From sequence record OZ346189.1: a DNA stretch of 64,000 bases. One strand, 5' to 3'. The notes beneath the pieces are model-generated. The model saw only the letters and a program-made list of their open reading frames with translations, did no database searches and was not told the origin of the DNA. Source of the DNA: a phage. The position numbers were made by a program, and so were the translations under genes. Of the stretch, positions 29,310-51,201 are shown one piece after another; the stretch's first letter is position 1; the number at the start of each line of letters is the position of its first letter.

Positions 29310-29594
29310 CTACCAGGTTACTGTCAAGTAGGCAACCGTATTATTTTTCTCTGGGGAGATGCCAACAACATCTACCTGCAGACCTCCTGCCCTTAAATCT
29401 CCAACAATGTGAGGGAAGTAATCTGAGAGATGCGAGGGTAGATTTATCGAAAATCCGCACCCCAGAAAGCCTGCTAACGCTTTATTTTGTATCTCCCCCA
29501 CAATCGCATCATAAATGGAGTTAAGCTCGTCAGGGAGCGTTACAGGACGTTTTAGCGCTAACTGGTGTAATTTGTCCTTAGCACTCATTTTCAT
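29310..29594 (-). CDS. hypothetical protein
   Basis: start MKMSAK at 29594 overlapping the upstream stop. Confidence 0.4.
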   Translation of the reverse strand: MKMSAKDKLHQLALKRPVTLPDELNSIYDAIVGEIQNKALAGFLGCGFSINLPSHLSDYFPHIVGDLRAGGLQVDVVGISPEKNNTVAYLTVTW

Positions 29595-30124
29595 TTCAGG
29601 TCTACCTCTGGAGGTGCCAACCACATAAACGGCGGCAAGTCTAAACGGTTTTTCTTATCCCACACAAAATATGCATATGCTTGCCCGTCAGTTCTGCCGT
29701 TTGATTGAAATGATGGACGCTTAGATATTGTGATCACAGTAGTAGGTGCATTATCAAGCCACCATTCAAATCTGGCTTTGCTTTCCAGAAAATTAAGACG
29801 CAAAAGCATAATAACTACGTCAGCATCTTTCAACGCCTTGTCTACAAACTCACGAGCCAGGCTGTATGGTGGGTTGGTGATAATACAGTCAACATGGTTG
29901 TATTCTGTATTCAGATAGTCAACACCTTCTTGTATTTCTCCCCATGCAGATCCTAACGGCATACGGGAGTAGAACACACCTGAGGCACTATTCCTGCAAG
30001 GCTCTAAGTAGGTCCAGTCTTCTGGGAACGGAATAAGGTCATACAGCCCTTCTGCACACCACTCCGGTGTCACATACTCATCGTAGGCGTTACGTTGTTC
30101 ATCAGGTTTTCGAGCACAAGTCAT
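29591..30124 (-). CDS. phage Dam-type DNA N6-adenine methyltransferase (small)
   Basis: ITNPPYS catalytic motif plus N-terminal YVTPEW...LEPC pattern typical of small phage N6-adenine methyltransferases. Confidence 0.5.
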   Translation of the reverse strand: MTCARKPDEQRNAYDEYVTPEWCAEGLYDLIPFPEDWTYLEPCRNSASGVFYSRMPLGSAWGEIQEGVDYLNTEYNHVDCIITNPPYSLAREFVDKALKDADVVIMLLRLNFLESKARFEWWLDNAPTTVITISKRPSFQSNGRTDGQAYAYFVWDKKNRLDLPPFMWLAPPEVDLK

Positions 30125-30175
30125 GCAAATCTCCAGATCATAAAAGCCCTCCGAAGAGGGCTTTAGAATTAATGT

Positions 30176-31225
30176 TTAAGCTTCTTCGACAATTCCTGCA
30201 CCCAGGATTTTTTCATTGAGCTCTTTTGCTGTTTTAATAATATTGTCCACCAGACGCTTGCGAGTCTTATCTTTTACCTTAACCTCTTCACCGCCGTTTA
30301 GGGTTGTCTTCAATTGGGACAAAATGTCTTGAAGTTCAACGACAGAGAATCGCTGCAGATCTTCTGAGGTAATCTCACCTAAGGCAATCTTAACGGTCTC
30401 ACCACTTTCCATCTGCAGGTTCAGGAACACAGTGTGAACATCACCTTTCGAACCACCAGCTTTTGCAGATTCAACAGCATGAACTAACTCATCTAAAGAG
30501 GTACACTGGTGAATCTCCGGGAGACCTGCTTCACCTAACACACCTTCTTCATCACCTTTTGCCAGAAGCTTTTTCGGTTTTTGTCCGTTCTGGATGCGTT
30601 GTATGTTACCTTCATCCAGAATGATAGCTCCAGTTCGAGCTGCCAGCTCCTCTCCGTCCAACCACACTTCACCACCAGCTGTGATGGATGCGATCTCATC
30701 TTCTGTCAGCACCCAACCGTAGTATTTTTCGATCAGGCGTTCGAAACGCTTTTTCCAGTAGCTGACCTGAGTATTCATGTTCACACCGTTACCATAAGTG
30801 CCACCTTGATAGTAGTGGAACATAAATTCTGTGTCCGGAGCCACAGTACGTTCTTTGCAACCCAGCCATAAGATTGTTCCCGCAGAGCAGCACATCCCTT
30901 CCGCATGTGCAACAACGCTTGCCTGAGACTCGCGGAATGCCTGCAGATAAGCCATCGCAATGTGCACGCAACCACCAGGGCTGTTAATGATCACTCGAAT
31001 GCTTTCTTCAGGCTGAGCCATACGGATCGTCTGCAGGCGAGACATATGATCCTGCAGGTCTTCCAAATCGTCGATATAAAGAACGTGGTCAACAACAGGT
31101 GTTGGGTAGCTGTATGTCTCCATAATACCACCCGGCATACCGAACATTTTATTACTCATAGGTTCGAAACCGTTCTGTTTTTCTTTCATGCCGTGTACCA
31201 TGGTGCTGCGAGGTGTTAAATTCAT
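30176..31225 (-). CDS. ClpP/S49-family serine protease-like protein
   Basis: INSPGG motif in the N-terminal half; acidic coiled C-terminal half. Confidence 0.55.
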   Translation of the reverse strand: MNLTPRSTMVHGMKEKQNGFEPMSNKMFGMPGGIMETYSYPTPVVDHVLYIDDLEDLQDHMSRLQTIRMAQPEESIRVIINSPGGCVHIAMAYLQAFRESQASVVAHAEGMCCSAGTILWLGCKERTVAPDTEFMFHYYQGGTYGNGVNMNTQVSYWKKRFERLIEKYYGWVLTEDEIASITAGGEVWLDGEELAARTGAIILDEGNIQRIQNGQKPKKLLAKGDEEGVLGEAGLPEIHQCTSLDELVHAVESAKAGGSKGDVHTVFLNLQMESGETVKIALGEITSEDLQRFSVVELQDILSQLKTTLNGGEEVKVKDKTRKRLVDNIIKTAKELNEKILGAGIVEEA

Positions 31226-31285
31226 GAGAAATCCTTAATATTGGAAGTTGAAAGCTATTTATTTAAACCTGATTCACATTTACCT

Positions 31286-31597
31286 TTATTTAGCAATCAC
31301 TAGTGAATACTTACGATTGTCAGAAGCATCACAGCTCAATGATTGCCAGTCTACCACATACCACGTATCATTGTCAACAATTACTTTATCGCCTGTTCTG
31401 TAGCAGGTACTGCTTTCAATAATCCGAGACTCGATAAAGAATCTGTGTCGGCGCTCACGTAGCAACGCTAAGTTGATTATATTACCACCGCTGTCCTTGA
31501 TCCACACATTCTTGGATCCTTTATTTGCCAAAATTGTCTCGCCGTTGTAGACAAACAGGCAGTATATTTTATTCAGTTTCTCTTGTATTGTAGCCAT
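31286..31597 (-). CDS. hypothetical protein
   Basis: ORF. Confidence 0.45.
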   Translation of the reverse strand: MATIQEKLNKIYCLFVYNGETILANKGSKNVWIKDSGGNIINLALLRERRHRFFIESRIIESSTCYRTGDKVIVDNDTWYVVDWQSLSCDASDNRKYSLVIAK

Positions 31598-31698
31598 ACT
31601 GTCCTTCTCTCTGTTTTGTCCGATAATAATATCTAAAGCTTACCTATTTGTCAACAACTGTTTTAGATATTTAAGGGTGGAATAACCACCCTTCTGTA

Positions 31699-32487
31699 TT
31701 ACTCGGAAACAGGGGTCCAAATATGGTTTGCACGATCCTCAATAAGATTGAGTGCGATCTGACGACCCAACCCGGAACGAACGACATCGTCTGGACTATC
31801 AAAGCTGATCATTCCAACCTCAGGATCTGGATGACGAGTAAAGAAATCCGTCACCCATGCAAGGCCAGATTTACCAGGGATGTCACGTTGGCTATTATCA
31901 CCCATAATTACAAGGGTGGCCTGATCAGAGATCCTTGTGATAATTGACAACATTTCTTCAGGGTTAGTTTGCTGTGCCTCGTCAATCAGGACAAAGCATC
32001 GCTCATCGAAACTACGACCACGAATGCTTTCAACTTCACAAATCTCGATACGACTGTTCTGACCGTCTCCCAGCATTGCGGCAAAAGCACCTTTGCCAAC
32101 ACGACGACAAATCGTGTCCATCATGCTTCGAAGATAGGGCCACAGTTTCTGCATTGCATTTCCGGGTTTAAATCCTGAAGTCTTTCCTGTCTGGACGTAA
32201 GGACGTGCAACAATGATCTTATCAATCTCGTTCTTACGCAGAAGATCACCTGCATATGCAGATGCCATAAATGTCTTACCGGATCCAAACACACCGTTTA
32301 CAATAATAATCTTACGTGACCCCAGATAATCAAGATACTTTTGCTGCTTCTTATTCATTGGTCGGAGAGCTGGAGCGGTGTGCTCTCTTTCGTCAGCAAA
32401 TTTCTCAGCAGCCTTACGCAGGCGATCAGATTTGCGAGCCTCTCTAGCTTCATCACGCATGCGTTTTGTTTCTTTAGCTCGACCCAT
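31699..32487 (-). CDS. phoH: PhoH-like ATPase
   Basis: Walker A GVFGSGKT and PhoH-like core. Confidence 0.75.
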   Translation of the reverse strand: MGRAKETKRMRDEAREARKSDRLRKAAEKFADEREHTAPALRPMNKKQQKYLDYLGSRKIIIVNGVFGSGKTFMASAYAGDLLRKNEIDKIIVARPYVQTGKTSGFKPGNAMQKLWPYLRSMMDTICRRVGKGAFAAMLGDGQNSRIEICEVESIRGRSFDERCFVLIDEAQQTNPEEMLSIITRISDQATLVIMGDNSQRDIPGKSGLAWVTDFFTRHPDPEVGMISFDSPDDVVRSGLGRQIALNLIEDRANHIWTPVSE

Positions 32488-32525
32488 GTTGGGACTCCTT
32501 TCAGATTGAGATGTGCCAAGTACTT

Positions 32526-32876
32526 TTACTGCAACAGTTTTTCAATAGCCGCTTCCATGCTGCTTGCAACAGCCTGAACTCGGATATTCATCTCTTCTTG
32601 GTGGATCAGCTCCTTAAGCTCTTTAATGGTAAATTCTTTAGAGAAACCTTCCACCATAATCTTGTGCAAGGCTTCTTGCGTGTCTACTTGCAAGAACTTT
32701 TCCAGTTTGTTGGCAGAGGCTTCTAAATCAGCCCGAATACGAGGGTCATCTGTGCGATTCAGCATTAGGCGTAAGCCATCAAGATTAGTAGAAATAGCAT
32801 CTGCATGTTGAGTAACTAACCGTGGCAAAATGAGGTCTACAAACTTATTAGCCAAATCGATACGTTCTTGTGTCAC
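32526..32876 (-). CDS. hypothetical protein
   Basis: ORF (GTG start). Confidence 0.4.
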   Translation of the reverse strand: MTQERIDLANKFVDLILPRLVTQHADAISTNLDGLRLMLNRTDDPRIRADLEASANKLEKFLQVDTQEALHKIMVEGFSKEFTIKELKELIHQEEMNIRVQAVASSMEAAIEKLLQ

Positions 32877-32986
32877 TGTTGCACCCCCTCTTCATCTTCA
32901 TGATGTTTCTTTTCACGCTTGTGTTTTTTCTTAAGCTCAAGCGCAATCTCTTTCTTGTACGCCTTCTTCAAGGCTTTTTTAGCCAT
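32873..32986 (-). CDS. hypothetical lysine-rich small protein (37 aa)
   Basis: MAKKALKKAYKKEIALELKKKHKREKKHHEDEEGVQQ; GGAGGTG RBS; not in the ORF track. Confidence 0.3.
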   Translation of the reverse strand: MAKKALKKAYKKEIALELKKKHKREKKHHEDEEGVQQ

Positions 32987-33048
32987 TTGGCACCTCCTCT
33001 GCTTTCATTACGCTAATTATAACCAACTTAACAAAACTTTGTCAACAA

Positions 33049-33522
33049 TTAGTCAACCTGAACCCAACCACCTGCTGCCTTTTTAAACATTCTTTGGTTA
33101 TCACTACCTCTGAAGGGTTTTTTGGTTGGGTTATCTTTTTCGTACTTACCATCCATAATGTAATCGACACTATCTTTAATGTAATCGGGAACCTCTTCAA
33201 ACAAATACCCTGTGTACACCCAGATAGTTTTTGTGTTGCCGAAGTGTTCACGGATAGCGCTAATGATCGAGTACATACCCTCAATATTGTAAGGCGCTAA
33301 AGGTTCGCCACCGCATAATGTAACGCCAGTAATGTGTTTCGGCTCTATAGAGTGAAGTATACTCTCAATAGTGTCATTTGTTAACGGTTCCCCTTTAGCT
33401 GGTGACCAAACACTTTTGTTTTGGCAACCGACGCAGTGATGTGGGCAACCAGAACAGAACACCGTTGTCCTAATGCCTGGGCCGTCAACCATGCTACACT
33501 CTATAATATTAACAACATTCAT
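33049..33522 (-). CDS. nrdG: anaerobic ribonucleotide reductase activating protein
   Basis: CPHHCVGCQNKSVW radical-SAM cysteine cluster typical of NrdG; about 157 aa. Confidence 0.75.
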   Translation of the reverse strand: MNVVNIIECSMVDGPGIRTTVFCSGCPHHCVGCQNKSVWSPAKGEPLTNDTIESILHSIEPKHITGVTLCGGEPLAPYNIEGMYSIISAIREHFGNTKTIWVYTGYLFEEVPDYIKDSVDYIMDGKYEKDNPTKKPFRGSDNQRMFKKAAGGWVQVD

Positions 33523-33755
33523 TCCTTATCCTCTTTTAGGTAAGGATATTCAGGCCCACAATAAGCTCTATCCAAGAAAACAGCTTCTTCCCCTCTGGAA
33601 TCAGTAGATCTATAATACCCATCACCATGGTAACTAACGAACCAGTGGCACCCATCATCGCTTTCTACTGTTGTGGCTCTGTCCGAATGAAAGATAATTT
33701 CGTAATCCTTACCGAATGTAAACCATCTGTTAGCTTTTACACAGACACCTATCAT
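33519..33755 (-). CDS. hypothetical protein
   Basis: ORF, coupled. Confidence 0.4.
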   Translation of the reverse strand: MIGVCVKANRWFTFGKDYEIIFHSDRATTVESDDGCHWFVSYHGDGYYRSTDSRGEEAVFLDRAYCGPEYPYLKEDKE

Positions 33756-34086
33756 AAGGAACCTCTCTTCTGTGGTGTGCTTCTATTCAAGATAAACCTA
33801 TAAAAGTCCATTTGATGAAGCCGTATAACTTTTTATACTTACGCTTCAGTGCTAACAATTTTATCTTGATTTTCTTGATAGATTCCCGCATTTCGACCCC
33901 TTATGCTTATAAGTACTCCGCATCGCATTCAGGGCAATGCCAAATAAAATCGTCCAGTGCCTTGCACCAACGAAGATTGCAACGACAACCACACTTGCAA
34001 ATTTTATAAATACCTTTAGACATACTGTACCCCCCAGCTCACTGTGTGTCAATAATATGCCACATCCTTGTGGCTTTTGTCAAGTA

Positions 34087-35292
34087 TCAGCAACTACAAC
34101 TTCCATAGTGCTTAACTCGCTCGATAACTTCCGCTTGCTTACCTTTATTGTAAGGACGGGAGTTAGGACTGGAAAGGTATCCAGACACACGTCGAATTAC
34201 ACTGATCGTTCCCTCTTCATGGTTTCCACACTCTGGGCATACAAAGCCTTTAGCTGTTGCACTGAACTCACCAGAGAAACCACACTTGAGACATTTATCC
34301 ACAGGTTGGTTAATACCAAAATACATAATATGTTTATACCCGAAGTCAACAAGAGCCTCTAAAGCATCCAGGTTGTTTTTCAGGTTAGGTGTCTCTACGT
34401 ATCCAATGTTGCCACCAGAGGAGATCATAGCAAAACCTTCCTCATACTCCCACTTATCAAAAGGAGAGCTATTTATCCACACTGGCTGATGGAAACTGTT
34501 GGTGAGATATTCATGCTCGTGCTTTAACACTTCTGGATATTCACGATCCAGACAGGTTGCAGCTTTATAGCATAGACTCTCAGAAGGAGTGCCGTACAAG
34601 CTAAATGCTAGTCTACTTTCCTTCTTGTATCGCTCACAAGCATCTCTCATGTGCTGAAGGATTCCAAGAGCTAAAGCCTTGTCACCTTCTCTGCCCAAAA
34701 TCTGACAGGTTTCATACACACCAATATACCCAATACTGATGGAAGCGTACCCGTCATAGAAGAGTTTATCAATACTTTCTTCGGGATCCAGGCGAGCAAG
34801 AGCGCCTTCACACCACATGATGGGGTTCTGCCCTGCCTTTGTTCCTTTTAGACGGTTAACCCTTACAAGGTGAGCCTCGTATGCAAGATCCAAGTATTCG
34901 TCAAGAACTGCAAAGAAATCAACACATTCCGTCTTAGCTTTTGCCGCAATCATTGGCAGGTTAAGGCTAACAACACCCAAGTTGAATCTGCCGAGGTATT
35001 TCTCCTCACCTGTTTCCAAGTCATTGTATTTGCTAAGAAAACTCCGGCAACCCATACTCGTTACTTTGCCATCTGTCGAGCCTGTCACTTTACGATTTAG
35101 TGGAACAGAAACAAAGTCAGGATAAATCCGCTCTGCAGAGCATTCCAGAGCTAATCGTTTCAAATCATAGTTAGGATCTCCGGGGTTCATGTTGACACCC
35201 TCTTCTAGGAAGAACAGCACTTTAGGGAACACAGGTGTGATACGTTCTTCACCAAGACCCATTTTGTGGACTTTCAAGTAATTTTTGGTAAT
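34087..35292 (-). CDS. nrdD: anaerobic ribonucleoside-triphosphate reductase, exon 2 (C-terminal part)
   Basis: C-terminal zinc ribbon (CLKCG...CPECG) and glycyl-radical motif RRVSGYL; the 5' boundary (3' splice site) is approximate. Confidence 0.65.
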   Translation of the reverse strand: MTKNYLKVHKMGLGEERITPVFPKVLFFLEEGVNMNPGDPNYDLKRLALECSAERIYPDFVSVPLNRKVTGSTDGKVTSMGCRSFLSKYNDLETGEEKYLGRFNLGVVSLNLPMIAAKAKTECVDFFAVLDEYLDLAYEAHLVRVNRLKGTKAGQNPIMWCEGALARLDPEESIDKLFYDGYASISIGYIGVYETCQILGREGDKALALGILQHMRDACERYKKESRLAFSLYGTPSESLCYKAATCLDREYPEVLKHEHEYLTNSFHQPVWINSSPFDKWEYEEGFAMISSGGNIGYVETPNLKNNLDALEALVDFGYKHIMYFGINQPVDKCLKCGFSGEFSATAKGFVCPECGNHEEGTISVIRRVSGYLSSPNSRPYNKGKQAEVIERVKHYGSCSC

Positions 35293-36143
35293 CATTCTAC
35301 CAAAGACCGAGGTATCCAGTCCTAAACTTAATGTGATGAATGGAGTCTGCTGTCTCCTCCCTGTGTTTCCACAGGGCCAGACTATCTATTACTCTACTTC
35401 AATAAGATAATAACCCTTTATTGTGAGATGCTTACCTTCGGCATTTCCTTCGATAGCCCTGTGAACGTTACCTACGTTCAAATTTAAGGCTTTTGCACAG
35501 GCGTAGAGTGAAGGATATTCACCCACCAAGATTTTCCCTTTGTATGCCTGCACTTTCCTATAGCACTTACCTGGACAAAGTCCTGTTCGGAAAGCATGTC
35601 TCTTATTATCTTCCGGCAAAACCCACTCTAGGTTAGACGGATGATCATTCAATGTATTGCCATCTTTATGATTCACTTCCCAGTTTTCAGGGTCTTCTGG
35701 GACATCTGGCAAACAATACAAGGCAACAACCCTTGAGGTTTGGATTCGAATCTTTTTACCTTTGTGGTTGAAAGAGTACATATAACGGCGTTTAACATGC
35801 TTATTACCTTTTCCATAACCTCCCCACAATATTGGGTGCAGCATTCCACGTTTTCCGTATACGTTTCCAACTTCATCAATCACATAGTTTGATTCTTCAC
35901 CATTAAGAATGATCTTTTTCATAGAGCCTCTCCATTTCGAAGTTAGTATTTCAACTAACCCCTACACTACTTGGTTCAGAAATGTTTGTCAAGCATCTCT
36001 GCCTTTCGTTAGTCGTTACAACCGTTCCAACTCCTGTAAGAACTAGTCACGGGATTGGCATAGCTTTCGCCTTAGCGTTCCCCGTTAGCCGGATTTACCG
36101 ACCCCTCTTATGAGGTTAGGAGAGTTTTACAACGGCCAGTTTG
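35293..36143 (-). other. group I intron (IA2-like) within nrdD
   Basis: exon 1 ends ...AACGGU then UAA; intron contains UAACGGGGAAC and CAAUCCCGUGACUAG as in the T4 td intron, an R-like GUAACGACUAAC element, and UAGAUAGUCUGG (S-like) after the HEG; boundaries approximate. Confidence 0.55.
35389..35922 (-). mobile_element. HNH homing endonuclease encoded within the nrdD intron
   Basis: HNH motif EVNHKDGNTLNDHPSNLEWV; GGAGAG RBS. Confidence 0.7.
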
Positions 36144-37282: not shown

Positions 37283-37285
37283 ATA

Positions 37286-38374: not shown

Positions 38375-38412
38375 TATTCTACCTCTAAAATGGGGCCGAA
38401 GCCCCTTTAAAA

Positions 38413-41466: not shown

Positions 41467-41525
41467 TATTATAGATTATCTAATACTATTAGTCAACACA
41501 AAAATTACCTATCGCTGTGATAGGA

Positions 41526-42709: not shown

Positions 42710-42710
42710 T

Positions 42711-43304: not shown

Positions 43305-43912
43305 TCTTCTTGGGCCTCTTTAGCATCAATATACTTGCACACAATCTCCGATGCACACTCCCAAGGTGCACCTTCAGGGTTTACAACATCAAACTCAACC
43401 CCTTTTATTCCGTTCTTTTCCAGACTTAGATAGGTTCTGGAATCATTTCCCCAGTCATATCCTACACGGTGAATACGGAACAACAACAGATCTCCACCTG
43501 TGCTGTATGCGTACTCGCTAAGGCATGCCAGCTCCTCTTTGAATCCCCCATCGGAGTAAACAATAACCCCTTTACCTTCAGGGAAATCTTTCTTCAAAGA
43601 TGCGACTGAGGCTTTACCGAAAGCATCTTCACCAAAGATAGGTTTAATCAGATTTTCACTACAATGGATCATCCATTCTCGCGGAGAAACATGCTTGCCG
43701 TCTATCATTAAGAAAGGGCAAGGCTCTTCTTTGTAGTGGCGGTCATAAAGTGCATTCCAGAGTTGAGGAGTTACACCAGCTGCCTTAATTGCCACACTGA
43801 AGAGCATTTCCTTAACCTCACGGTGGTGTGAGTTAGGAATAGCTTCCAACAAGAGATCTGCAATGTGATCCTTACCACTGCTGGGTGGGGCGTTAAGAAC
43901 AATAATATCCAT
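43298..43912 (-). CDS. P-loop nucleotide kinase (dNMP kinase-like)
   Basis: P-loop LNAPPSSGKD near the N-terminus, similar to T4 gp1-type kinases. Confidence 0.5.
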   Translation of the reverse strand: MDIIVLNAPPSSGKDHIADLLLEAIPNSHHREVKEMLFSVAIKAAGVTPQLWNALYDRHYKEEPCPFLMIDGKHVSPREWMIHCSENLIKPIFGEDAFGKASVASLKKDFPEGKGVIVYSDGGFKEELACLSEYAYSTGGDLLLFRIHRVGYDWGNDSRTYLSLEKNGIKGVEFDVVNPEGAPWECASEIVCKYIDAKEAQEEC

Positions 43913-44115
43913 TAAAAACCTCCGTGGTATTCTTCAACTGCATCAATAATACTTTTACACTTATCTACCAGCTCGTTAGCCACTACAGCATCGTCTTCCC
44001 AAACAGCCTCCTCAATCTGATCAAGCAATGATCGCATCTTACTCATCATTTCTGGGATAAAGTTTTCTGAAAAGCTGTCTGGAATTGTTAACTCTAGTGT
44101 CATTTCGGTCTCCAA
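43912..44115 (-). CDS. hypothetical acidic protein
   Basis: ORF. Confidence 0.4.
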   Translation of the reverse strand: METEMTLELTIPDSFSENFIPEMMSKMRSLLDQIEEAVWEDDAVVANELVDKCKSIIDAVEEYHGGF

Positions 44116-44130
44116 TCATACTATGCGTTA

Positions 44131-44589
44131 TTAGAAGTTTGTTTTTACACGTCCCTTCTCATCAACCTCGTTGTTAGCTAAAAGCGTTACAAAGTCTGTG
44201 AAACGAACATGAAGAACCCTTTTCTTATCAAGGTATCCTAAAGCCACCCCTGAGAAATTTAGCATCAAAGGGGCTAAAGAAGCTCTGGCACTGAAATGCT
44301 GTTGTTCTACCCTTCCAACACCCTTAGTGTAGGATGGGTTAAGATTGTAAGTTCTGAATCCCAGTTTTGTTGGAGCTTTAGAATTAAAAACGACTTTATA
44401 GCGTTTCTTACTCAACTTATGCTCCAGGATAAGCATTCCCTTATCACCTTTGATAAGTTGAAAATCTGTAAAGTGCTCTTTTAAGACGAAAGGTAGTGCC
44501 AGTCCCATCGCCTGTCCTCTTTGTACCGCTGTCTCACCAAAAGCTTTTGCATCAGTAAGTTCTTTGGTCAAGTCTATGCTTTTGATCAT
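44131..44589 (-). CDS. hypothetical protein
   Basis: ORF. Confidence 0.4.
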   Translation of the reverse strand: MIKSIDLTKELTDAKAFGETAVQRGQAMGLALPFVLKEHFTDFQLIKGDKGMLILEHKLSKKRYKVVFNSKAPTKLGFRTYNLNPSYTKGVGRVEQQHFSARASLAPLMLNFSGVALGYLDKKRVLHVRFTDFVTLLANNEVDEKGRVKTNF

Positions 44590-45400
44590 ACCTGGTCTCC
44601 AAAATGTATTGTAGTTCTTTCTTACCTATACTCTTCATTCCAGCAGTCTTACCTGCTTCTTCTTGAAAAGAAGAATAGCATTCAGCAAACACTCTGTCAA
44701 CACCGTTAACTAAAGATTTTATGAAATATGTTGATTCTTCAGATTTTGGGTCATCATCCCCCAATACTTTTCCAGCATTATACCCAACACGTCTTACACA
44801 GAAGTCGTAGTCATCTGGTGTGCTAAAAGAAAATAACTTATTCTCTCCAATCTCTACAGGATCCCTATTGCACGCCTTTTTCTCCCAAATTTGGAAAACA
44901 CATGGCACGTCATAAGGTTTGCCATTAAGTAAAAACGAATTCTTAGGGCACCTTTCGCTGTAGACAAGGTGCATCGACATGTCCAGTTTGTTTGCAAAAA
45001 ATATTTTTTCAAATGTCCGTGGCAAGATGAAGGCTATAGCCCCTCCAAGCTCTAGCAATGATGCACAATGGTTAAAGAATTTGCAAGCTAAGGATGAATT
45101 CTTGCCAAATGGTGGGTTACCTATGAAGACATCTGCCTTGGGATGCACCTCCAAGAAGTTTGCCTGAATGCACGGTGTTGGTCCTTCAAATTCAGGATCT
45201 GGTACTAAATCGTACGACAGTATCTCTGAAAATAGTTTTGAAAAAGAACCCCTTCCAGCAGAAGGCTCAACGTATGCACAATTCCCATACTTATCTTTTA
45301 CTTTACCAACAAGATATTCTGCATACTCAGGGTTTGTGTAGTATTTGTCGTTGGACTCTTTCTTGCTCAAAGTGCCTCCAAAAGGAAAAGGGAGGCGCAA
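44552..45400 (-). CDS. DNA N6-adenine methyltransferase
   Basis: SAM-binding motif VEPSAGRGSF and catalytic IGNPPFG. Confidence 0.6.
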   Translation of the reverse strand: MRLPFPFGGTLSKKESNDKYYTNPEYAEYLVGKVKDKYGNCAYVEPSAGRGSFSKLFSEILSYDLVPDPEFEGPTPCIQANFLEVHPKADVFIGNPPFGKNSSLACKFFNHCASLLELGGAIAFILPRTFEKIFFANKLDMSMHLVYSERCPKNSFLLNGKPYDVPCVFQIWEKKACNRDPVEIGENKLFSFSTPDDYDFCVRRVGYNAGKVLGDDDPKSEESTYFIKSLVNGVDRVFAECYSSFQEEAGKTAGMKSIGKKELQYILETRYDQKHRLDQRTY

Positions 45401-45415
45401 GCCTCCCTATAATTG

Positions 45416-46399
45416 TTAGATTATCTGAATCAGGGTATTTTTCATTTCTTCTCTGGTGCGGATGTTGTTACGGTCACGAACAACAGATCCACAACCTTCG
45501 CAGCGGTATGTTTTAAATGCACTCAGTTGAGTATACGCCAAAGCTTCTTCCTCGTGAAGGTGTTCTCCACCACAGCGTGGGCAACGAACTTTTGGCTCCT
45601 CATCCTGGTAGTACAATGACATGTTGGGGTGCTGCTTAGCAAACGGGCGAGCCAGCAAATACAGGCCTTCCAGAGATAGGATATCGCCAACATTGTACTC
45701 CCGCATCTGTTTAAACGCCTCAAGATCACCGTGAACACACTTGATCCACATTTCAAATGTGTGGTCAATCAGTTTCTGTCGGGCAAGTTGGAAGTATTTG
45801 CATGCATACTCCAAAGTGTTTGCATTCAAACGGAATGCCTTCTTGATCATTTTAAGGGTGTCAACCTCTTTGTAGGGGCTTGTTGGAGGCAATCCGTGAA
45901 ATGCAAATCGTTGGTTGGCCCACCCACAGTCAAAACCTGAATTGTGGGCTACTGCGACATCACATTTATCCAGATAATACCACAAATCCTGAATCAATTC
46001 GAGATCATTGTGAATATCCTCATCCCACATTTTGTAATCAGGAAGAGCGCAGTCAACCACACTAGGACTGTCTAACCACTTACCTGCGAAAGTTAGCATG
46101 TAGGGCATAATTTCAATACCGCAGGTTTGAATGTTGGTCTTATAGTGCCCAAAGAACCAGCCGTTTGTTGGAGATGTCTCTGTATCATACACCCAAACTT
46201 TAGCACCTTTGTGCTCTTCAAGGAAGCGCTCCGTTGCTTCTCCTACAATCTCTGACATATTCTCTTGTGCACGTTTAAGCTGTAGTCGGATCCAGCTCTC
46301 ACGTGACTCACGGCCTAAAAATTCACGAGCAATTTGTCTATTAGTGTATCCCTGTTGCTTTAGTGTTAAAATTTGCTCAAGAGTTAACTTTGTCATCAT
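45416..46399 (-). CDS. DnaQ-like 3'-5' exonuclease with C-terminal zinc finger
   Basis: Exo I VYDTETS, Exo II AHNSGFD; CPRCGG...CEGCGS. Confidence 0.55.
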   Translation of the reverse strand: MMTKLTLEQILTLKQQGYTNRQIAREFLGRESRESWIRLQLKRAQENMSEIVGEATERFLEEHKGAKVWVYDTETSPTNGWFFGHYKTNIQTCGIEIMPYMLTFAGKWLDSPSVVDCALPDYKMWDEDIHNDLELIQDLWYYLDKCDVAVAHNSGFDCGWANQRFAFHGLPPTSPYKEVDTLKMIKKAFRLNANTLEYACKYFQLARQKLIDHTFEMWIKCVHGDLEAFKQMREYNVGDILSLEGLYLLARPFAKQHPNMSLYYQDEEPKVRCPRCGGEHLHEEEALAYTQLSAFKTYRCEGCGSVVRDRNNIRTREEMKNTLIQII

Positions 46400-46411
46400 C
46401 GTTAAGATTCC

Positions 46412-46633
46412 TTAGTAAAACTGAAGAATGTCTTTTAAAGCGAAGTCACGATATTCGCCCTTGTCTACATCGAAGGCACGCATCAACCACTGCTCTTCTT
46501 TATGATACTCTGTAGAGCCAAACCATAAATTAGGCTCAGTAACGCAGCGATCTGCAACAACACCTTTCCAGTTACGGTATTTCATCCTGATCAGGACTGA
46601 GTCGCAAGGATTGAATACCTTTTTCATCCCCAT
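46412..46633 (-). CDS. hypothetical protein
   Basis: ORF. Confidence 0.4.
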   Translation of the reverse strand: MGMKKVFNPCDSVLIRMKYRNWKGVVADRCVTEPNLWFGSTEYHKEEQWLMRAFDVDKGEYRDFALKDILQFY

Positions 46634-47177
46634 AGAAATCTCTCTCCTCAGTTTTCTTTATAAACTCCTGCATGTAGGACTCAATAGCCTCATGCTTGGT
46701 GCACTCTGGATTAATGACAAGATTGAGATCTGATTCTGCTCGTGCAATGATCGTAGCTTTAGAGCATCTCCTCAAGAACTTTGTCATATCATCTCTGTAG
46801 TTTTTGTGGAGCGGGAAGTCGCTGTAGTCTTTCTCCAAATAGTCAGCCATCCGGCGCAACGCCTCTGATAAACTGCAATCTGTATACTCGTTACAGTATT
46901 TCATCCAGTATTTAAGCACATACCCCTCAAAGGTATTAGTGCATTGTGACAAAACACCCCTGCAACGACCAGTCAGATGGTCATGATCCAAACAAGGCTT
47001 ACGAAGTGGCTCGCACAAGATCGGATCAAGACCATCCTGCTCCTCTGACAATTCTTTTCGAAAGTTGGCTATGTCCTTAGAATCTTTTAGCCACCCGCTA
47101 TGAACGGGGGCTTTGACAGCTTTCTTTCTTATTTTACGCTTTGCGATAACCCCTCCAGATGCGCCCTGCCTATCCAA
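46572..47177 (-). CDS. Endonuclease VII-like (T4 gp49 family) nuclease
   Basis: CLDHDHLTGRCRGVL...C motif of the Endo VII/HNH family; true start may be internal. Confidence 0.55.
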   Translation of the reverse strand: MDRQGASGGVIAKRKIRKKAVKAPVHSGWLKDSKDIANFRKELSEEQDGLDPILCEPLRKPCLDHDHLTGRCRGVLSQCTNTFEGYVLKYWMKYCNEYTDCSLSEALRRMADYLEKDYSDFPLHKNYRDDMTKFLRRCSKATIIARAESDLNLVINPECTKHEAIESYMQEFIKKTEERDFYGDEKGIQSLRLSPDQDEIP

Positions 47178-47758
47178 TAAGCATCGGCGAGATCGGCCTT
47201 ACCTTGTACCAAATTGATCCCATCTAGGAACCCAGGTTCAGATACTTCGCAGGCCTTAACCATCAACTTTTTATCCATCGTAACAGGTTTCTTCACAGTA
47301 TGCTCTTTACCTGTCTTTTTGTCAAGCTTTTTCTTCTCCTCAAAAGCAAGTTCCTCAGGAAGATGACTACGAGCAAACTTTTTGGCAGTTGTTGGTGTCA
47401 CGGTGTGGACCTTAAACAGGCCGTCATTTTCACAATCAGCTAAAGCATCCCAAAGCATAACTTCAAGACCGTAAAACAACCCAGCCAGTTCGCGTGTGGC
47501 ATCCCCGCGTGATCCAAAGGAAAGCCCTTCCATAACCACGGTGTCAACGCCGTGCGTGTGGATGTAATATCTGACCTGTTTGCAGATCCAGTCAATACGC
47601 TCAGCAGCTGTTGCAAAAGAAACCGTCCCTGGTTTCTTCTCTTTTGCAGATGAGCTTTGAGTTCGTAACACAACCTTATGAACAGGCTTTCCATCGTCCC
47701 ATACAACGCAAGCTGTGTGTGTCAACGACTGGTCTATGGATAATAGACGCTCTCTCAT
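47129..47758 (-). CDS. RuvC-like Holliday junction resolvase
   Basis: RNase H-fold pattern LLSIDQS...VVMEGLSF...LADAYWIG consistent with RuvC-type catalytic residues. Confidence 0.45.
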   Translation of the reverse strand: MRERLLSIDQSLTHTACVVWDDGKPVHKVVLRTQSSSAKEKKPGTVSFATAAERIDWICKQVRYYIHTHGVDTVVMEGLSFGSRGDATRELAGLFYGLEVMLWDALADCENDGLFKVHTVTPTTAKKFARSHLPEELAFEEKKKLDKKTGKEHTVKKPVTMDKKLMVKACEVSEPGFLDGINLVQGKADLADAYWIGRAHLEGLSQSVK

Positions 47759-48087
47759 GCTTCCTCGTCCTCCTCTCCTTCATCAGGAGCATAAGCCTTA
47801 TCTTTGAACAAGACGAGAGAGCAAAGCTTAACATCTGTTTCCACACTGGTGAACATGCATAACCGCTCGCCCTCAATCAGCTCACAATCCTCTTTTAAAA
47901 CAGCAGACCATACACGGTCATCTGCGTAATCATCCGTGTACAGGATGTATGAAATGGTGTCATCTTCATACAACCGCCACATACCTGTGGCAACAACGAA
48001 TGTATTTTTTGTTTTAAGTGTCCCTGTTGTGTGATCATCCTCAAAAACAGCTTCCATAATTGCGTTATCTACAGCATTTTTAGTCAT
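47755..48087 (-). CDS. hypothetical protein
   Basis: ORF, coupled. Confidence 0.4.
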   Translation of the reverse strand: MTKNAVDNAIMEAVFEDDHTTGTLKTKNTFVVATGMWRLYEDDTISYILYTDDYADDRVWSAVLKEDCELIEGERLCMFTSVETDVKLCSLVLFKDKAYAPDEGEEDEEA

Positions 48088-49226
48088 CAGATTGCTCCAA
48101 CATTTCTAAGAACGTTAACAAGTTTTGTCTGGTCATTAAATGTCCGCTTCATATACAAACAGTCAAAAATTATACTCATCCATTGACCTACGGAAATTCT
48201 ACGATCAATACCATTGAAGTCAGTATACTTAACAACACCTTTCGGGAACCACTTCTTGTACTGATCAATAATAGCCACCCACATCTCCTTTGGAGTGCTG
48301 CACTGAGACAGTAGGTAGAATGCTGAGGCATCCCCGAACTTACCCTTACCGATAAGTCCTTGATACGGCTTGATGTTGTCAGCAGAGTCACCACACAGCA
48401 TTTGGTATCCGAAGAACAGCATCCCGTAACCGCCAACCTCTCCATTAGGCTTCATGAAGATGTTCCCCATACCGTTATCGATCAGCATAGGGGTTTCCCT
48501 TACAAAATCTCCCTTATCGTTTCGCATGGGATCGAACACAAGCCCCGGTAGTGTTCTTTGGTCCTTATCAATAGAGATAATAAACTTGTTGAACTTACCT
48601 GTTTTTTGGTAGTGGTTCCAACCTTCAAATTGCTGGATAGCTAACCAGTCGTCAGCCTCGATACCGTTGATCACTTGAGCATTATACTGCTTTTGGAGAT
48701 ACTGTCTTGCATCTCCAAGCAGCAGTGGTCTAAGAGTATTGTTACGGTTGGCTTTATATCTTTCCGGCATGGGAAGATCTAGTCTGAAATTACCTGTGCC
48801 TCCAAGTACCCCCACGCACCGATCTTCCGGAATACCGAGATAATTAAGGACTGCATTAGCTTTACACTTAATTGTGTGCAAGCAGTTCTCTACAGGATCA
48901 GGGGTTTGGATATCCAAGACATCGAAATCTTCTCGTGTCCACGGAATAAACTCCTTGCCAGCCTTTTTACATGCAGCTTCACGGTTGGTATTCTCAGCTT
49001 TTAACCAACCACCAACGGTGTTCTTCTGCCGCCCCCAGAACTCTGTTCGTGTTTTAAACATCTTCTTACGTCCGGAGGCTTTGTGTGTTACCTCAATTGT
49101 CCTTTTTTCACAACTTGCTGCAGCTTGATATGCAACCTGATCGAAGTCATAATAAACTATAGCGTCAGGTTCAAGAAGATCAGCTAGACAATCTATGGAC
49201 TCAATAAGTGGATATTCTCTACTCAA
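48087..49226 (-). CDS. 5'-3' exonuclease / flap endonuclease (FEN/RNase H-type)
   Basis: EADDWLA motif and H3TH-like CGDSADNIKPYQGLIGKGKFGDA. Confidence 0.5.
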   Translation of the reverse strand: MSREYPLIESIDCLADLLEPDAIVYYDFDQVAYQAAASCEKRTIEVTHKASGRKKMFKTRTEFWGRQKNTVGGWLKAENTNREAACKKAGKEFIPWTREDFDVLDIQTPDPVENCLHTIKCKANAVLNYLGIPEDRCVGVLGGTGNFRLDLPMPERYKANRNNTLRPLLLGDARQYLQKQYNAQVINGIEADDWLAIQQFEGWNHYQKTGKFNKFIISIDKDQRTLPGLVFDPMRNDKGDFVRETPMLIDNGMGNIFMKPNGEVGGYGMLFFGYQMLCGDSADNIKPYQGLIGKGKFGDASAFYLLSQCSTPKEMWVAIIDQYKKWFPKGVVKYTDFNGIDRRISVGQWMSIIFDCLYMKRTFNDQTKLVNVLRNVGAI

Positions 49227-49527
49227 AGACCCTCCTGTTAGTTATTCTGCAAGATGGTTGGATGCTGTAATGAAATGCATCATCACTCTCTGCAATAAGT
49301 GACTCAACATCCCAATACTTTTCAAAAAGGAACGGATTAGACCCCCAGTGGTGGGTTATTTTCATCAATGAGTCTGGTAGCAGATAGCCACAGATCTTAA
49401 TTACATCACCAGGTTGAATTGTGTTTTCATAGAGGTTGCTTTCCTTCTTCAGAATAATACCTTTATGATTCTCGTTTGCATACAACTGGACAATATCTTT
49501 ATCTTCAACAATAAAAATTTTAAGCAT
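49219..49527 (-). CDS. hypothetical protein
   Basis: ORF. Confidence 0.4.
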   Translation of the reverse strand: MLKIFIVEDKDIVQLYANENHKGIILKKESNLYENTIQPGDVIKICGYLLPDSLMKITHHWGSNPFLFEKYWDVESLIAESDDAFHYSIQPSCRITNRRVFE

Positions 49528-49586
49528 GTCTAGTTCTCCTAGTTTATAAATATCTGACTGATAATATCAGATTAATAACACTTTTG

Positions 49587-49883
49587 TCAAGACTTTTTAG
49601 TCTTTCTTGGAGAGCTTTTTGTTGATCTTTTCCTTTTGTGGTAGATTCCAAGTGCAGCGTTTTCTTGGGCGCACGTTTTAACAGTTCTCAGAGAAGAACT
49701 TTCAGCTTTAGGCAGGTTTAACTCCCACCAACCGAGCCAGTAAAGTTCTGATTCCGACAGCTGCTCAGATTCAGCCTTCCGATACAATGATTGCATACCT
49801 CTAATGATGTCGTCCAGAGGTGTATCGAATACAAAAGCTGTCTTATCAAATTTCTCTTTTACAGGTTTCTTAGCCATGCTCAC
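49587..49883 (-). CDS. hypothetical basic protein
   Basis: ORF. Confidence 0.4.
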   Translation of the reverse strand: MSMAKKPVKEKFDKTAFVFDTPLDDIIRGMQSLYRKAESEQLSESELYWLGWWELNLPKAESSSLRTVKTCAQENAALGIYHKRKRSTKSSPRKTKKS

Positions 49884-50754
49884 CTCTCACACAATCATCC
49901 ACTGACTTCATAAACTCTTGCACCCAAAGTGCCCCTATTTGAGGAACTATGGCGTTACCGAAGCCTTTGTGGCGAGACAATCCCATTGGGGTGGATAGCC
50001 CATCAACCAACAAGGGAATGCCGGGTTCAGGAAGTTTACGCCATTTTCCGTCTCGGCATAGATACTGTCTTGTATGCTCCCACACCCGTAATACATCCTC
50101 ACCTGCTCCCACAGATTCCCAGGACTTAATGACTTCCTGCCAGTTGCTAAGCGTTGTTGCTTGCGCCTTTCCATCGCTTCCTGAGATCTGCACCCTACCT
50201 GAGTTACCGTAGGGGTTAACCACGTTGCTAACTGCCCCGAAGTAAAGTCGTTCGCGGCGGTGCGGGGCGTTGAGGATTGCAGCATTAAGTATGGAAGCCC
50301 CGAAGCTGTAACCAGCGTTTTCCATTTCATTCTGCATATCGTCGAGCCATCCGGATTCAATCGCTTTTGCAACCTGCTCTCCAAACATGAACTCAGGTTT
50401 AAGCTGTTTAACGAGCCGGAGGTATGTTGGTGCAAGATGTCTTGGGTCAAATTTTCCACGTTGCTTACCTGCTTGAGAGAAAGGTTGGCAGCACGGAGAT
50501 CCTGTGCATACCGACCAAGTTTCTGGAATGCCAGCAAGTTTCAAGGCCAAAGGCCATCCACCTATACCAGCGAAGAAGTGCCACTGTGTGAAACCTCTAA
50601 GATCTTCTACAGTAACCTCTGTAATAGAACGATCATCCACCTCGCCTTGAGGAAGTAGTCCTAAAGATATTAGATTCTTCAACCAAGCAACTGCATCTTT
50701 ATCATTGTCATTGTAGTATACCACACTTAATTCTCCAAATACTGATGTATCCAA
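49870..50754 (-). CDS. DNA (cytosine-5)-methyltransferase
   Basis: motif I FFAGIGG, motif IV GSPCCQPFSQAG, motif VIII HRRER, motif X GNAIVPQ. Confidence 0.65.
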   Translation of the reverse strand: MDTSVFGELSVVYYNDNDKDAVAWLKNLISLGLLPQGEVDDRSITEVTVEDLRGFTQWHFFAGIGGWPLALKLAGIPETWSVCTGSPCCQPFSQAGKQRGKFDPRHLAPTYLRLVKQLKPEFMFGEQVAKAIESGWLDDMQNEMENAGYSFGASILNAAILNAPHRRERLYFGAVSNVVNPYGNSGRVQISGSDGKAQATTLSNWQEVIKSWESVGAGEDVLRVWEHTRQYLCRDGKWRKLPEPGIPLLVDGLSTPMGLSRHKGFGNAIVPQIGALWVQEFMKSVDDCVRGEHG

Positions 50755-51173: not shown

Positions 51174-51201
51174 TAAACGTCCGTCTTCCACGTGTTCTCC
51201 C

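Follow-up and report, generated by a model that had tools for sequence, protein, structure and literature searches.

Three predicted orphan DNA methyltransferases in an rV5-like phage: a GATC adenine enzyme, a probable GTAC enzyme, and a putative cytosine-5 enzyme with rearranged motifs

Among the closest described counterparts of the enzymes discussed here is the N6-adenine methyltransferase of Escherichia phage WalterGehring (Bas51), which triggers two retrons, Retron-Asa1 and Retron-Squ1, and is toxic when expressed alone (PLoS Biol 2025, PMC12548924). Bas51 escapes the retrons through mutations D69G, D79G, and T83P in this enzyme, and the point mutants plate equally to wild type on a retron-free host. 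The published nanopore run, which called 6mA only, counted 1405 m6A at GATC, 509 at GTAC, and 576 at other positions in wild-type phage, as opposed to 35, 511, and 349 in the T83P mutant, and detected two adenine motifs and no more (PMC12548924). Another retron, Ec86/Eco1, is triggered by the “Dcm-like” methyltransferase of the Drexlerviridae phage K42 (bioRxiv 10.1101/2023.08.16.553469). The BASEL paper describes the Vequintavirinae as “exceptionally susceptible” to restriction-modification systems. Among cytosine-5 (C5) methyltransferases, the natural permuted enzymes M.BssHII, M.Alw26I, M2.Eco31I, M.Esp3I, and M2.BsaI are circular permutants in which motifs IX–X precede I–VIII, and engineered “type B” permutants of M.MpeI and M.SssI, in which motif I is detached from II, retain about wild-type activity (PMC5944983).

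The DNA analyzed here is a 64,000-nucleotide window of sequence record OZ346189.1, whose source is an rV5-like E. coli phage (Vequintavirus) with 98–100% nucleotide identity to APECc02, pangalan, and CarlMeissner. The initial annotation had placed three methyltransferases in a replication module, and three minus-strand ORFs with methyltransferase motifs are indeed present (M1, M2, and M3; Table 1), in a neighborhood of nucleotide metabolism, replication, and recombination genes that broadly fits this description. Across ~120 Vequintavirus genomes, M1 and M2 keep identities of 94% or more, and M3 has a dN/dS of 0.23 against an 80%-identical homolog, so these are real conserved genes and not chance ORFs. 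The proposed coordinates are exact for M1, which begins at ATG 30124 behind a GGAG ribosome-binding site, but the other two starts have to be moved. M2 is best started at TTG 45370, which has GGAGG 4 nt before it and gives the 272-aa product annotated in relatives, and not at TTG 45400, a codon inside the loop of a terminator hairpin with an 8-bp stem; M3 is best started at GTG 50724, which is preceded by GGAG and comes 2 nt beyond the stop codon of the HNH gene ahead of it, and not at 50754, from where it would overlap that gene. The genomes of relatives hold two more methyltransferase genes, not in the window and not remarked on earlier, for up to five per genome. We consider it probable that M1, the likely GTAC enzyme M2, and the rearranged M3 are three functional, separately translated orphan methyltransferases that mark a few specific sequences and do not methylate the genome broadly.

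Table 1. Positions in the window of the methyltransferase genes, their motifs, and adjacent features
Feature	Position	Strand	Description and evidence
M1	29591..30124	-	177 aa GATC-specific N6-adenine DNA methyltransferase; ORF and translation, phrog_799, bas51_0176 identity
M1 catalytic motif IV, NPPY	29864..29875	-	Residues 84–87; translation
GC-rich hairpin AGCCCTC-TTCG-GAGGGCT, then TTTT	30145..30162	-	Between ClpP-like gene and M1; read by eye
M2	44552..45370	-	272 aa gamma-class (TaqI/BseCI-like) N6-adenine DNA methyltransferase, probable GTm6AC enzyme
M2 catalytic motif IV, NPPF	45107..45118	-	G84-N85-P86-P87-F88-G89 invariant in 59 homologs
M2 motif I, EPSAGRGSF, AdoMet-binding loop	45242..45268	-	E35, P36, G39, G41, F43 invariant in 59 homologs
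Intrinsic-terminator-like hairpin upstream of M2	45389..45408	-	Terminator scan: 8 pairs, 6 GC, T-rich tail
M3	49870..50724	-	284 aa accessory putative cytosine-5 DNA methyltransferase of rearranged II-III-I-IV phage family; PF00145, phrog_363
M3 cassette, 870 nt	49878..50747	-	Presence/absence polymorphism, replaces 13 nt of M3-less relatives; megablast against Bas51, junction sequences
M3 motif IV, GSPCCQPFS	50476..50502	-	Catalytic Cys79, preceded by Cys instead of near-invariant Pro
M3 motif I, FFAGIGGW, relocated between III and IV	50554..50577	-	phmmer: residues 46–76 to M.HhaI 3–33
M3 motif III, VDDRSITEV	50614..50640	-	M.HhaI GDITQV; V29, D30, R32, I34, V37 invariant
M3 motif II, YYNDND, N-terminus	50701..50718	-	Family consensus YYNEWD; M.HhaI YSNEWD
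HNH-type putative homing endonuclease	50727..51242	-	Directly upstream of M3; ORF with CxxC...H...CxxCH; so annotated in relatives

The published Bas51 enzyme can be matched to a gene by residue identity: of the three adenine methyltransferases annotated in Bas51, only bas51_0176 has D69, D79, and T83, so the escape mutations fit it alone and the published methyltransferase maps to it. M1 is 99.4% identical to bas51_0176, and the T83 codon directly precedes its NPPY motif. The Bas51 genome contains 703 GATC and 258 GTAC sites, or 1406 and 516 adenines, and the nanopore counts set over these site counts give m6A at 1405/1406 GATC and 509/516 GTAC adenines (counts from PMC12548924). The GATC signal is lost in T83P; GATC m6A in Bas51 depends on the M1 ortholog, and the GATC function of M1 is already published. 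The earlier proposal of self-methylation is borne out to this extent, Bas51 carrying m6A at both motifs with near-identical M1 and M2 orthologs (99.3% for M2). “Dam-type” is likewise an apt label for the specificity of M1. In sequence, M1 lies below the cutoffs of the phage Dam families PF05869 (19.2 bits versus 28.1) and TIGR01712 (16.1 versus 97). A Pfam search gave only sub-threshold matches to EcoRI_methylase and Dam, and there was no sequence homolog in the PDB, while phrog_799 “DNA methyltransferase” was matched with an E value of 8e-67. M1 is a core Vequintavirinae gene, syntenic with a ClpP-like protease; the hairpin between the two was unflagged by the automatic terminator scan. M1 would put m6A on essentially every GATC of the replicating phage genome, as seen for the Bas51 ortholog, and would assume a job that host Dam cannot finish during lytic growth.

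In an E. coli host, where Dam is present anyway, GATC methylation adds no protection. This, the location of the genes among those of replication, recombination, and nucleotide metabolism, the lack of GATC avoidance in the window (observed/expected 1.07), and the retention of M1 across the subfamily despite retron triggering and toxicity when expressed alone would all fit M1 and M2 methylation serving mainly phage DNA metabolism and not anti-restriction, for instance by keeping MutH from nicking GATC sites that lack the mark, or by labeling DNA that is to be replicated, recombined, or packaged. We regard this putative role as possible but somewhat unlikely, because the wild-type plating of the M1 point mutants on a retron-free host makes M1 function dispensable in the laboratory; nor do we know of any housekeeping role of GTAC methylation. 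Under our preferred reading of a few specific marks, these would protect solely against nucleases with GATC, GTAC, or the M3 site as their target, and may serve phage DNA metabolism in addition.

In M2, motif X is invariant across the same 59 homologs as motifs I and IV, and the AF2 model has a pLDDT of 93. No Pfam or NCBIfam threshold was reached (Pfam Eco57I, 15.5 versus 25.3) and no sequence-detectable relative was present in the PDB; M2 does match PADLOC Type II methyltransferase models over its full length, and a bacterial homolog is separated by 9 nt from a small downstream ORF that weakly matches a Type II restriction enzyme. M2 is predicted to be a monomeric TaqI-like enzyme with a small C-terminal target-recognition domain. 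Since the GTAC counts of wild type and T83P are almost the same (509 and 511), GTAC methylation in Bas51 is independent of M1. No GTAC methyltransferase is known from E. coli K-12, and the sole other candidate, bas51_0070, is homologous over its full length to Type III Mods (E 1.5e-205). Type III Mods normally recognize asymmetric sites, typically of 5–6 bp, and methylate one strand. By elimination, M2 is the likeliest source of the M1-independent mark, and would most likely make GTm6AC at ~99% of GTAC sites.

The competing explanation is that the Mod-like enzyme, whose gene lies outside the window, methylates GTAC and that M2 has some other substrate, such as a rarer DNA motif among the “other” m6A, single-stranded or replicating DNA, or RNA. 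Bas51 does encode both enzymes, 349 unexplained “other” calls remain in the M1 mutant, and some sources call M2 homologs “predicted RNA methylase.” We nevertheless think it unlikely. Structural alignments of M2 over 227–252 residues, including the target-recognition domain, were to DNA m6A methyltransferases only (M.BseCI, MmeI, M.TaqI, and CamA), whereas RNA methyltransferases cover only a core of ~150 residues; the full-length match to Type II models and the typically asymmetric sites of the Mod class point the same way, and M2 occurs in all ~121 Vequintavirus records while the Mod-like gene is found in Bas51 and 87 of the records.

M3 matches PF00145 above cutoff (E 3e-20), over motifs IV–VIII only, as well as phrog_363 (E 4e-60), and scores 57.9 against TIGR00675, under the cutoff of 100.65. 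The unusually short spacing between motifs I and IV that had been noticed earlier is real, with 27 residues from FxGxGG to (P/C)CQ in contrast to 62 in M.HhaI; 219 of 220 family members have a spacing of exactly 27. It does not, however, reflect a shortened linker: motifs II–III come first in the protein, at its N-terminus, and are followed by the motif I module and then by motif IV, which makes the short spacing a motif rearrangement and not a deletion. The N-terminus aligns to M.HhaI 37–64, residues 46–180 align to M.HhaI 3–33 plus 69–176, and hhalign places a 36-residue gap where M.HhaI carries motifs II–III. Residues 1–70 of the AF2 model (pLDDT 86–94) form a strand-helix-strand-strand-helix-strand, suggesting that the beta1/Gly-loop/alphaA module has been relocated from its N-terminal place into the interval between motifs III and IV and that, in the predicted structure, the Rossmann-type AdoMet pocket is kept with altered connectivity. 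At an E value of 1e-10 or better, the rearranged 85-residue module recurs in at least 3,258 protein clusters (50% identity), and of the best 150 listed matches almost all begin at protein residues 1–10; this non-circular rearrangement is carried by a very large phage and prophage family. We found no description of a II-III-I-IV order of C5-methyltransferases in the literature, and the search criterion of the survey of permuted enzymes (PMC5944983) would have missed it.

M3 is carried by only 4 of ~120 Vequintavirus records (at least 99% identity), and the cassette, a clean insertion, is apparent from annotation as well, in a comparison of CarlMeissner with JeffSchatz. The HNH gene, which has no Pfam match, occurs in M3-carrying and M3-less genomes alike. 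M3 is an optional gene, gained or kept as a cassette beside it. Its rarity could mean that M3 is no working 5mC methyltransferase, being instead a decaying passenger, a non-catalytic DNA-binding protein, or an enzyme of non-methyl transfer. Consistent with this, a Cys precedes the catalytic Cys in only 2 of 136 family members, the M3 clade has Asp for Glu in motif II, the variable region is very short (~50 residues) and poorly modeled (AF2 pLDDT <50), phage Bas48 enjoys no extra protection in the BASEL assays, and Foldseek matches include a natural phage C5-carboxymethyltransferase (PDB 8yf3). We consider this improbable, however, as M3 retains Cys79, Glu116, Arg157/Arg159, and the motif X GN, none of which varies within the family, its gene is preceded by a ribosome-binding site of its own, and the 80%-identical homolog, at the syntenic position in a more distant phage, keeps both unusual residues at the low dN/dS given above; 8yf3 is one among many canonical C5-methyltransferase folds at similar scores, and the top Foldseek matches are M.HhaI structures. 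M3 would accordingly be expected to make 5-methylcytosine at a probably short target.

Orphan phage methyltransferases are classically anti-restriction, and the initial annotation took the three enzymes jointly as a broad self-methylation shield against host restriction. The several methyltransferase genes per genome and, in Bas51, the almost full methylation of two 4-bp motifs speak for such a shield, but two tetranucleotides and a putative cytosine motif do not amount to breadth, and no more than two adenine motifs were detected. Bas48, the nearest M3-carrying relative, carries M1, M2, and M3 and in the BASEL data still plates at ~5e-4 on EcoRI (restricted ~1000-fold), forms no plaques on EcoRV, and plates at 0.02–0.09 on EcoCFT_II; Bas49 plates likewise in the same tables, M3 carriage being established, of the two, for Bas48. 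Together with the described susceptibility of the subfamily, this makes the broad-shield reading very improbable, and for the tested restriction systems it is already contradicted.

Phage methyltransferases are also a liability, because retron defenses sense them, a cost that had been overlooked. Like M3, the K42 enzyme is an orphan phage cytosine methyltransferase, and it is retron-sensed; its homolog of the bas51_0074 type is core in Vequintavirus genomes, lies outside the stretch studied here, and is not encoded in the window. This type belongs to a different family from M3, with 236–254 aa, motif I in the canonical position, an FPPCT motif, and no Pfam match.

Compared with known systems, M1 and bas51_0176 have the same length and the same position by the ClpP-like protease, and differ by a single conservative residue change near the C-terminus, with no functional difference known. 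With E. coli and T4 Dam (alpha class) and the PF05869/TIGR01712 family M1 shares the target and the product Gm6ATC; like PF05869 members it is small, and it has the (D/N)PPY catalytic motif. Unlike classical Dam, it has the motif order X, I, IV (as does M2); its Gly loop, EPCRNSASG, is degenerate, and a separate recognition domain is nearly absent. M2 follows M.TaqI, M.BseCI, CamA, and the methyltransferase domain of MmeI in its order X, I, II, III, IV (NPPF) with a C-terminal recognition domain, but is much smaller (272 aa versus 382–751) and is an orphan in the phage, with putative GTAC specificity. M3 aligns with M.HhaI and canonical PF00145 enzymes in motifs IV–VIII (E 4e-13) and shares their catalytic Cys, motif VI Glu, motif VIII RxR, and motif X GN, but has the order II-III-I-IV...X in place of I-II-III-IV...X, SPCCQ in place of PCQ, and its abbreviated variable region. 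The circular permutants show that the C5-methyltransferase fold tolerates motif re-ordering; in M3, unlike in those permutants, motif X stays C-terminal and the motif I module alone has moved internally.

The window matches rV5-like E. coli myoviruses of the genus Vequintavirus (APECc02, pangalan and CarlMeissner/Bas48) at 98% to 100% nucleotide identity, and by alignment its counterpart in WalterGehring/Bas51 is positions 74158-140659, continuing into 1-2024. The arbitrary record start of the deposited relatives, with the spanin and terminase genes, falls inside the window at 61977-64000, corresponding to Bas51 1-2024, and a window that spans the ends of its relatives' records fits a circularly permuted genome. 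Seven tRNA genes cluster at 60743-61555; one is a 99-nt tRNA call whose anticodon has four bases ("tRNA-???", 61212-61310), at approximately the place of an annotated 97-nt tRNA-Lys in Bas51. The 1-kb Bas51 endonuclease gene bas51_0186 is missing at window 34031-34055, a homing-endonuclease polymorphism.

The initial annotation claimed three methyltransferases in this stretch: M1 and M2, both N6-adenine enzymes, and M3, a cytosine-5 enzyme. All three ORFs are present and their translations carry methyltransferase motifs, although the start codons proposed for M2 and M3 had to be corrected (see table). The three lie within a long minus-strand block (approximately 20 to 56 kb of the window) among genes for a ClpP-like protease, PhoH, ribonucleotide reductases, thymidylate synthase, a DnaQ-like exonuclease, endonuclease VII, a 5'-exonuclease, endolysin, and DNA ligase. 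Related genomes have 2 more methyltransferase genes approximately 10 kb upstream of the window start, beside helicase/primase and absent from the window. One of these, the bas51_0074 type, is kin to the Drexlerviridae Dcm-like (K42) family and is encoded by Vequintaviruses outside the window region.

Methyltransferase genes of the window and its relatives, with adjoining features
Feature	Position	Strand	Description
M1	29591-30124	-	NPPY motif; ATG with GGAG ribosome-binding site; GC-rich hairpin upstream
M2	start TTG 45370	-	GGAGG 4 nt upstream; 272 aa as annotated in relatives; start initially placed at 45400
Terminator-like hairpin, 8 bp	45389-45408		loop holds the initially proposed M2 start, TTG 45400
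M3	start GTG 50724	-	GGAG upstream; start 2 nt past the stop of the HNH gene; initially proposed start 50754 overlaps the HNH gene
HNH-like ORF adjoining M3	50727-51242		CxxC...H...CxxCH; no Pfam family match
bas51_0070	L005:14456-15781		441-aa Type III Mod-like adenine methyltransferase; 87 records including pangalan
bas51_0074	L005:17042-17806		254-aa "Dcm-like", no Pfam hit; 116 Vequintavirus records and approximately 1350 other phages

In Pfam and NCBIfam only M3 scores above threshold (PF00145, 73 bits), with M1 and M2 giving sub-threshold matches. PHROG matches are strong for both adenine enzymes, M1 falling in phrog_799 ("DNA methyltransferase") and M2 in phrog_5172 ("unknown function"). 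Both are core genes, at least 94% identical across approximately 120 Vequintavirus records, with homologs in related genera at 47% to 66% identity for M1 and 54% for M2. Sequence searches of the PDB found no relatives of either. Among the searches as a whole, BFVD contributed a single additional same-family model. Dozens of GenBank records labelled as Campylobacter jejuni phages (MG0656xx, "Campylobacter phage A116, A138, A142, D1, C9, C12 ...") are 98% to 100% identical to E. coli rV5-like phages over M1, M2, and the Mod-like gene; probably the host label is wrong or the phage preparations were contaminated.

The function of M1 is already known through its 99.4% identical Bas51 ortholog, bas51_0176. 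A 2025 study isolated mutants of Bas51 (WalterGehring, MZ501111) that escape Retron-Asa1 and Retron-Squ1, and found the N6-adenine methyltransferase of this phage to be toxic when expressed on its own (PMC12548924). Native nanopore sequencing of Bas51 revealed a GATC m6A motif that is nearly gone in T83P phage (PMC12548924), with m6A counts of 1405 at GATC, 509 at GTAC, and 576 elsewhere in the wild type against 35, 511, and 349 in the mutant (PMC12548924 supplement). Because Bas51 has 703 GATC and 258 GTAC sites, or 1406 and 516 adenines, these counts correspond to methylation of approximately 99% to 100% at both motifs. The calls outside GATC and GTAC, of which 349 survive M1 mutation and 227 more are M1-dependent (PMC12548924, S4 table), may represent noise, methylation at off-target sites, or the target motif of a third enzyme, the Type III-like Mod being one candidate. 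Among the 3 annotated Bas51 adenine methyltransferases, Asp69, Asp79, and Thr83 occur together in bas51_0176 only; mismatches at residues 69, 79, and 83 rule out M2 or the Type III-like Mod as the published retron trigger.

M1 is therefore correctly called "Dam-type" as a functional statement, its ortholog losing GATC methylation with T83P. The same label fails as an assignment by family score, since M1 stays below the phage Dam cutoffs of PF05869 (19.2 versus 28.1 bits) and TIGR01712 (16.1 versus 97.05). The catalytic motif IV of amino-methyltransferases (N6A/N4C), (D/N/S)PP(Y/F), is present as NPPY at residues 84-87, while a degenerate EPCRNSASG occupies the place of the glycine-rich AdoMet loop (motif I), EPSAGRGSF in M2. 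This degenerate loop notwithstanding, the Bas51 ortholog is active (PMC12548924).

M2 has the motif order X, I, II, III, IV followed by a C-terminal recognition domain, which is that of gamma-class (M.TaqI/Eco57I-like) enzymes. Across 59 homologs, motif X (D..YT.P, with D8 and T12), motif I (EPSAG.G.F, E35-F43), the acidic motif II residue D54, and GNPPFG (G84-G89) are invariant, and approximately 130 C-terminal residues follow. The match to PF07669 (Eco57I) reaches 15.5 bits, under the gathering score of 25.3, while the PADLOC MTase_II model PDLC03255 matches M2 over its full length (E = 3.3e-34, residues 8-253 on profile positions 2-249 of 269). AlphaFold models M2 with confidence (pLDDT 93), and the structural similarity to gamma-class enzymes takes in the recognition domain as well as the Rossmann core. 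Downstream of a Poseidonibacter homolog, separated from it by 9 nt, lies a 199-aa ORF, and Type I restriction-modification genes adjoin. Because of the invariant motifs, the predicted structure, the full-length PADLOC match, and this neighborhood, M2 is classified as a predicted gamma-class DNA adenine methyltransferase. The 199-aa ORF was considered as a cognate restriction enzyme that might point to the specificity of M2; it gives none, as searches of the PDB, Pfam, and NCBIfam returned nothing for it and PADLOC REase_II matched weakly. Many M2 homologs, P0129, P0130, and P0132 among them, carry a precomputed assignment to the Pfam family PF26055.

Methylation at GTAC in Bas51 is independent of M1, and E. 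coli K-12 is not known to have a GTAC methyltransferase, which leaves M2 (bas51_0200 in Bas51) and bas51_0070 as the phage candidates. The latter matches Type III Mod enzymes over its full length (PF01555, E = 4e-42; PADLOC MTase_III, E = 1.5e-205), and the Type III Mod class typically recognizes asymmetric sites of 5 to 6 bp. By elimination, GTm6AC is probably the product of M2, and this proposed role gives a directly testable assignment to a core gene of "unknown function" in PHROGs. A literature search found no paper combining GTAC, methyltransferase, and Vequintavirus; among sources on Vequintavirus methylomes or restriction digests, methylation data are absent from the rV5 genome paper, and the Durham collection paper contains nothing relevant. 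Over window 1-64000, observed/expected ratios of palindromic tetramers are 0.56 for CTAG, 0.69 for GTAC, 0.70 for ACGT, 0.71 for CGCG, and 1.07 for GATC, so that GTAC is under-represented despite its almost full methylation in the close relative Bas51.

The methyltransferases had been taken together to imply broad self-methylation against host restriction. Self-methylation itself stands, given the near-complete m6A at GATC and GTAC in Bas51, but it is narrow. The BASEL study described Vequintavirinae as "exceptionally susceptible" to restriction-modification systems, and Bas48, which has M1, M2, and M3, plated there at approximately 0.5 to 0.9 on EcoKI, 0.02 to 0.09 on EcoCFT_II, 0.09 to 0.56 on EcoPI, and approximately 5e-4 on EcoRI, with no plaques on EcoRV. 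Restriction this strong indicates that the methyl marks can block only enzymes reading GATC, GTAC, or the M3 site. An M3-specific phenotype was sought in the same plating data and none emerged, as values for Bas49, which may or may not have M3, are approximately those of Bas48. The marks may serve phage DNA metabolism instead of, or besides, blocking restriction. They also come at a cost in opening the phage to retron sensing, as the M1 ortholog triggers Retron-Asa1 and Retron-Squ1 (PMC12548924) and a Drexlerviridae Dcm-like enzyme (the K42 member methylates CCWGG) triggers retron Ec86 (bioRxiv 10.1101/2023.08.16.553469). The tempting step from many methyltransferase genes to broad anti-restriction is thus corrected by a phage group that is strongly restricted in published platings despite near-complete GATC and GTAC methylation.

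M3, in comparison with the 2 core adenine enzymes, is an accessory gene. Most Vequintaviruses lack it, many records covering just 88% of query 44000-51500, and in JeffSchatz (Bas55) the segment missing from this query is exactly M3. At 99% identity or more it occurs in only 4 phage records (HdK5, pangalan, CarlMeissner, and Alma). Relative to Bas51, 870 nt (window 49878-50747) stand in place of 13 nt; the junctions have no flanking repeats, and the cassette recreates the ATGGCTAAG overlap of the downstream gene. The next-closest homolog, at 80% identity, is in a more distant metagenomic phage with a syntenic arrangement (SIR2, ligase, ..., M3, exonuclease), and because dN/dS against it is 0.23, M3 is under purifying selection.

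The PF00145 match of M3 (73.3 bits, cutoff 22) covers residues 80-177 of the 294-aa ORF, and its best PDB matches by Foldseek are M.HhaI structures. C79 (motif IV), E116 (VI), R157/R159 (VIII), and G256-N257 (X) are intact and invariant in 75 family members. The TIGR00675 dcm score (57.9 bits) is under the cutoff of 100.65. The residue before the catalytic Cys is Cys in place of a near-invariant Pro (2 of 136 family members), motif II in the M3 clade has Asp for Glu, and the variable region is approximately 50 residues long and poorly modelled (alignment A1 columns approximately 250-490). The Bas51 methylation study called 6mA only, in a phage without M3 (PMC12548924), and no methylome that includes 5mC calls turned up for any phage carrying M3. 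On motifs and modelled structure, M3 belongs among predicted cytosine-5 DNA methyltransferases, as a structurally rearranged variant.

The canonical linear order from motif I to motif X is absent in M3. An unusually short spacing between motifs I and IV had been noted, and it is real, measuring 27 residues in 219 of 220 family members; its cause lies in the placement of motif I. In phmmer, M3 46-76 aligns with M.HhaI 3-33 (motif I) and M3 76-180 with M.HhaI 69-176 (motifs IV-VIII), leaving out M.HhaI 34-68, and hhalign with the 75-member family profile gives the same gap of 36 residues. The skipped segment is found at the family N-terminus, where YYNEWDK...VDERSITEV corresponds to M.HhaI 37-64, YSNEWDK...GDITQV (motifs II and III), and the TIGR00675 alignment begins at M3 residue 8 at profile position 20, past motif I. 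These alignments together give the order II-III-I-IV-V-VI-VII-VIII-variable-IX-X, in which the beta1/Gly-loop/alphaA module has left the N-terminus and now lies 27 residues ahead of the catalytic loop. AlphaFold predicts residues 1-70 at pLDDT 86-94, with the order strand (2-5), helix, strand (27-30), strand (47-50), helix, strand (72-74). Truncation of M3 with loss of motif I upstream was considered and rejected: only 2 nt separate the end of the HNH gene from the M3 start, and in none of the family members examined does FxGxGG precede motif II.

The relocated module is also widespread. An exhaustive search with the 85-residue rearranged module recovered at least 3,258 cluster representatives at E = 1e-10 or better, and in nearly all of the best 150 matches listed the module starts at protein residues 1-10. 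Phage members include N15 (gene 58), epsilon15, Dhillonvirus (K1G), Klebsiella phage Seifer, and Rhodobacter, Burkholderia, and Xanthomonas phages, and members also occur in Pantoea, Salmonella, and E. coli genomes. We consider it very improbable that the rearranged family constitutes a separate mechanistic class of phage cytosine-modifying enzymes, in which a rebuilt cofactor pocket would alter what is transferred or when, combined in the M3 clade with the active-site Cys-Cys and a minimal recognition region. Were it so, these enzymes might use a different cofactor from AdoMet or modify phage DNA, replicating or single-stranded, almost irrespective of sequence, and plain site-specific 5mC would be the wrong description.

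Cytosine-5 methyltransferases have been held to be uniform in motif order, the sole natural exception in a 2018 REBASE survey being circular permutation in the variable region, with motifs IX-X first in all natural permuted enzymes (PMC5944983). M3 is not such a circular permutant: M.BssHII-type enzymes place IX-X before I-VIII (PMC5944983), whereas M3 and all its aligned relatives have motif X (GFGNAIVP) at the C-terminus. Full-text literature searches found no description of the M3-type arrangement, although an earlier mention elsewhere is possible. At least 3,258 clusters with a non-circular relocation of the AdoMet-loop module would be a new structural point, and annotation and surveys based on motif order overlook or mis-parse such proteins. 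Engineered cytosine-5 methyltransferases with motif I detached are active, yet in nature this arrangement "does not seem to occur" (PMC5944983); the rearranged family would represent a natural experiment on Rossmann-fold connectivity.
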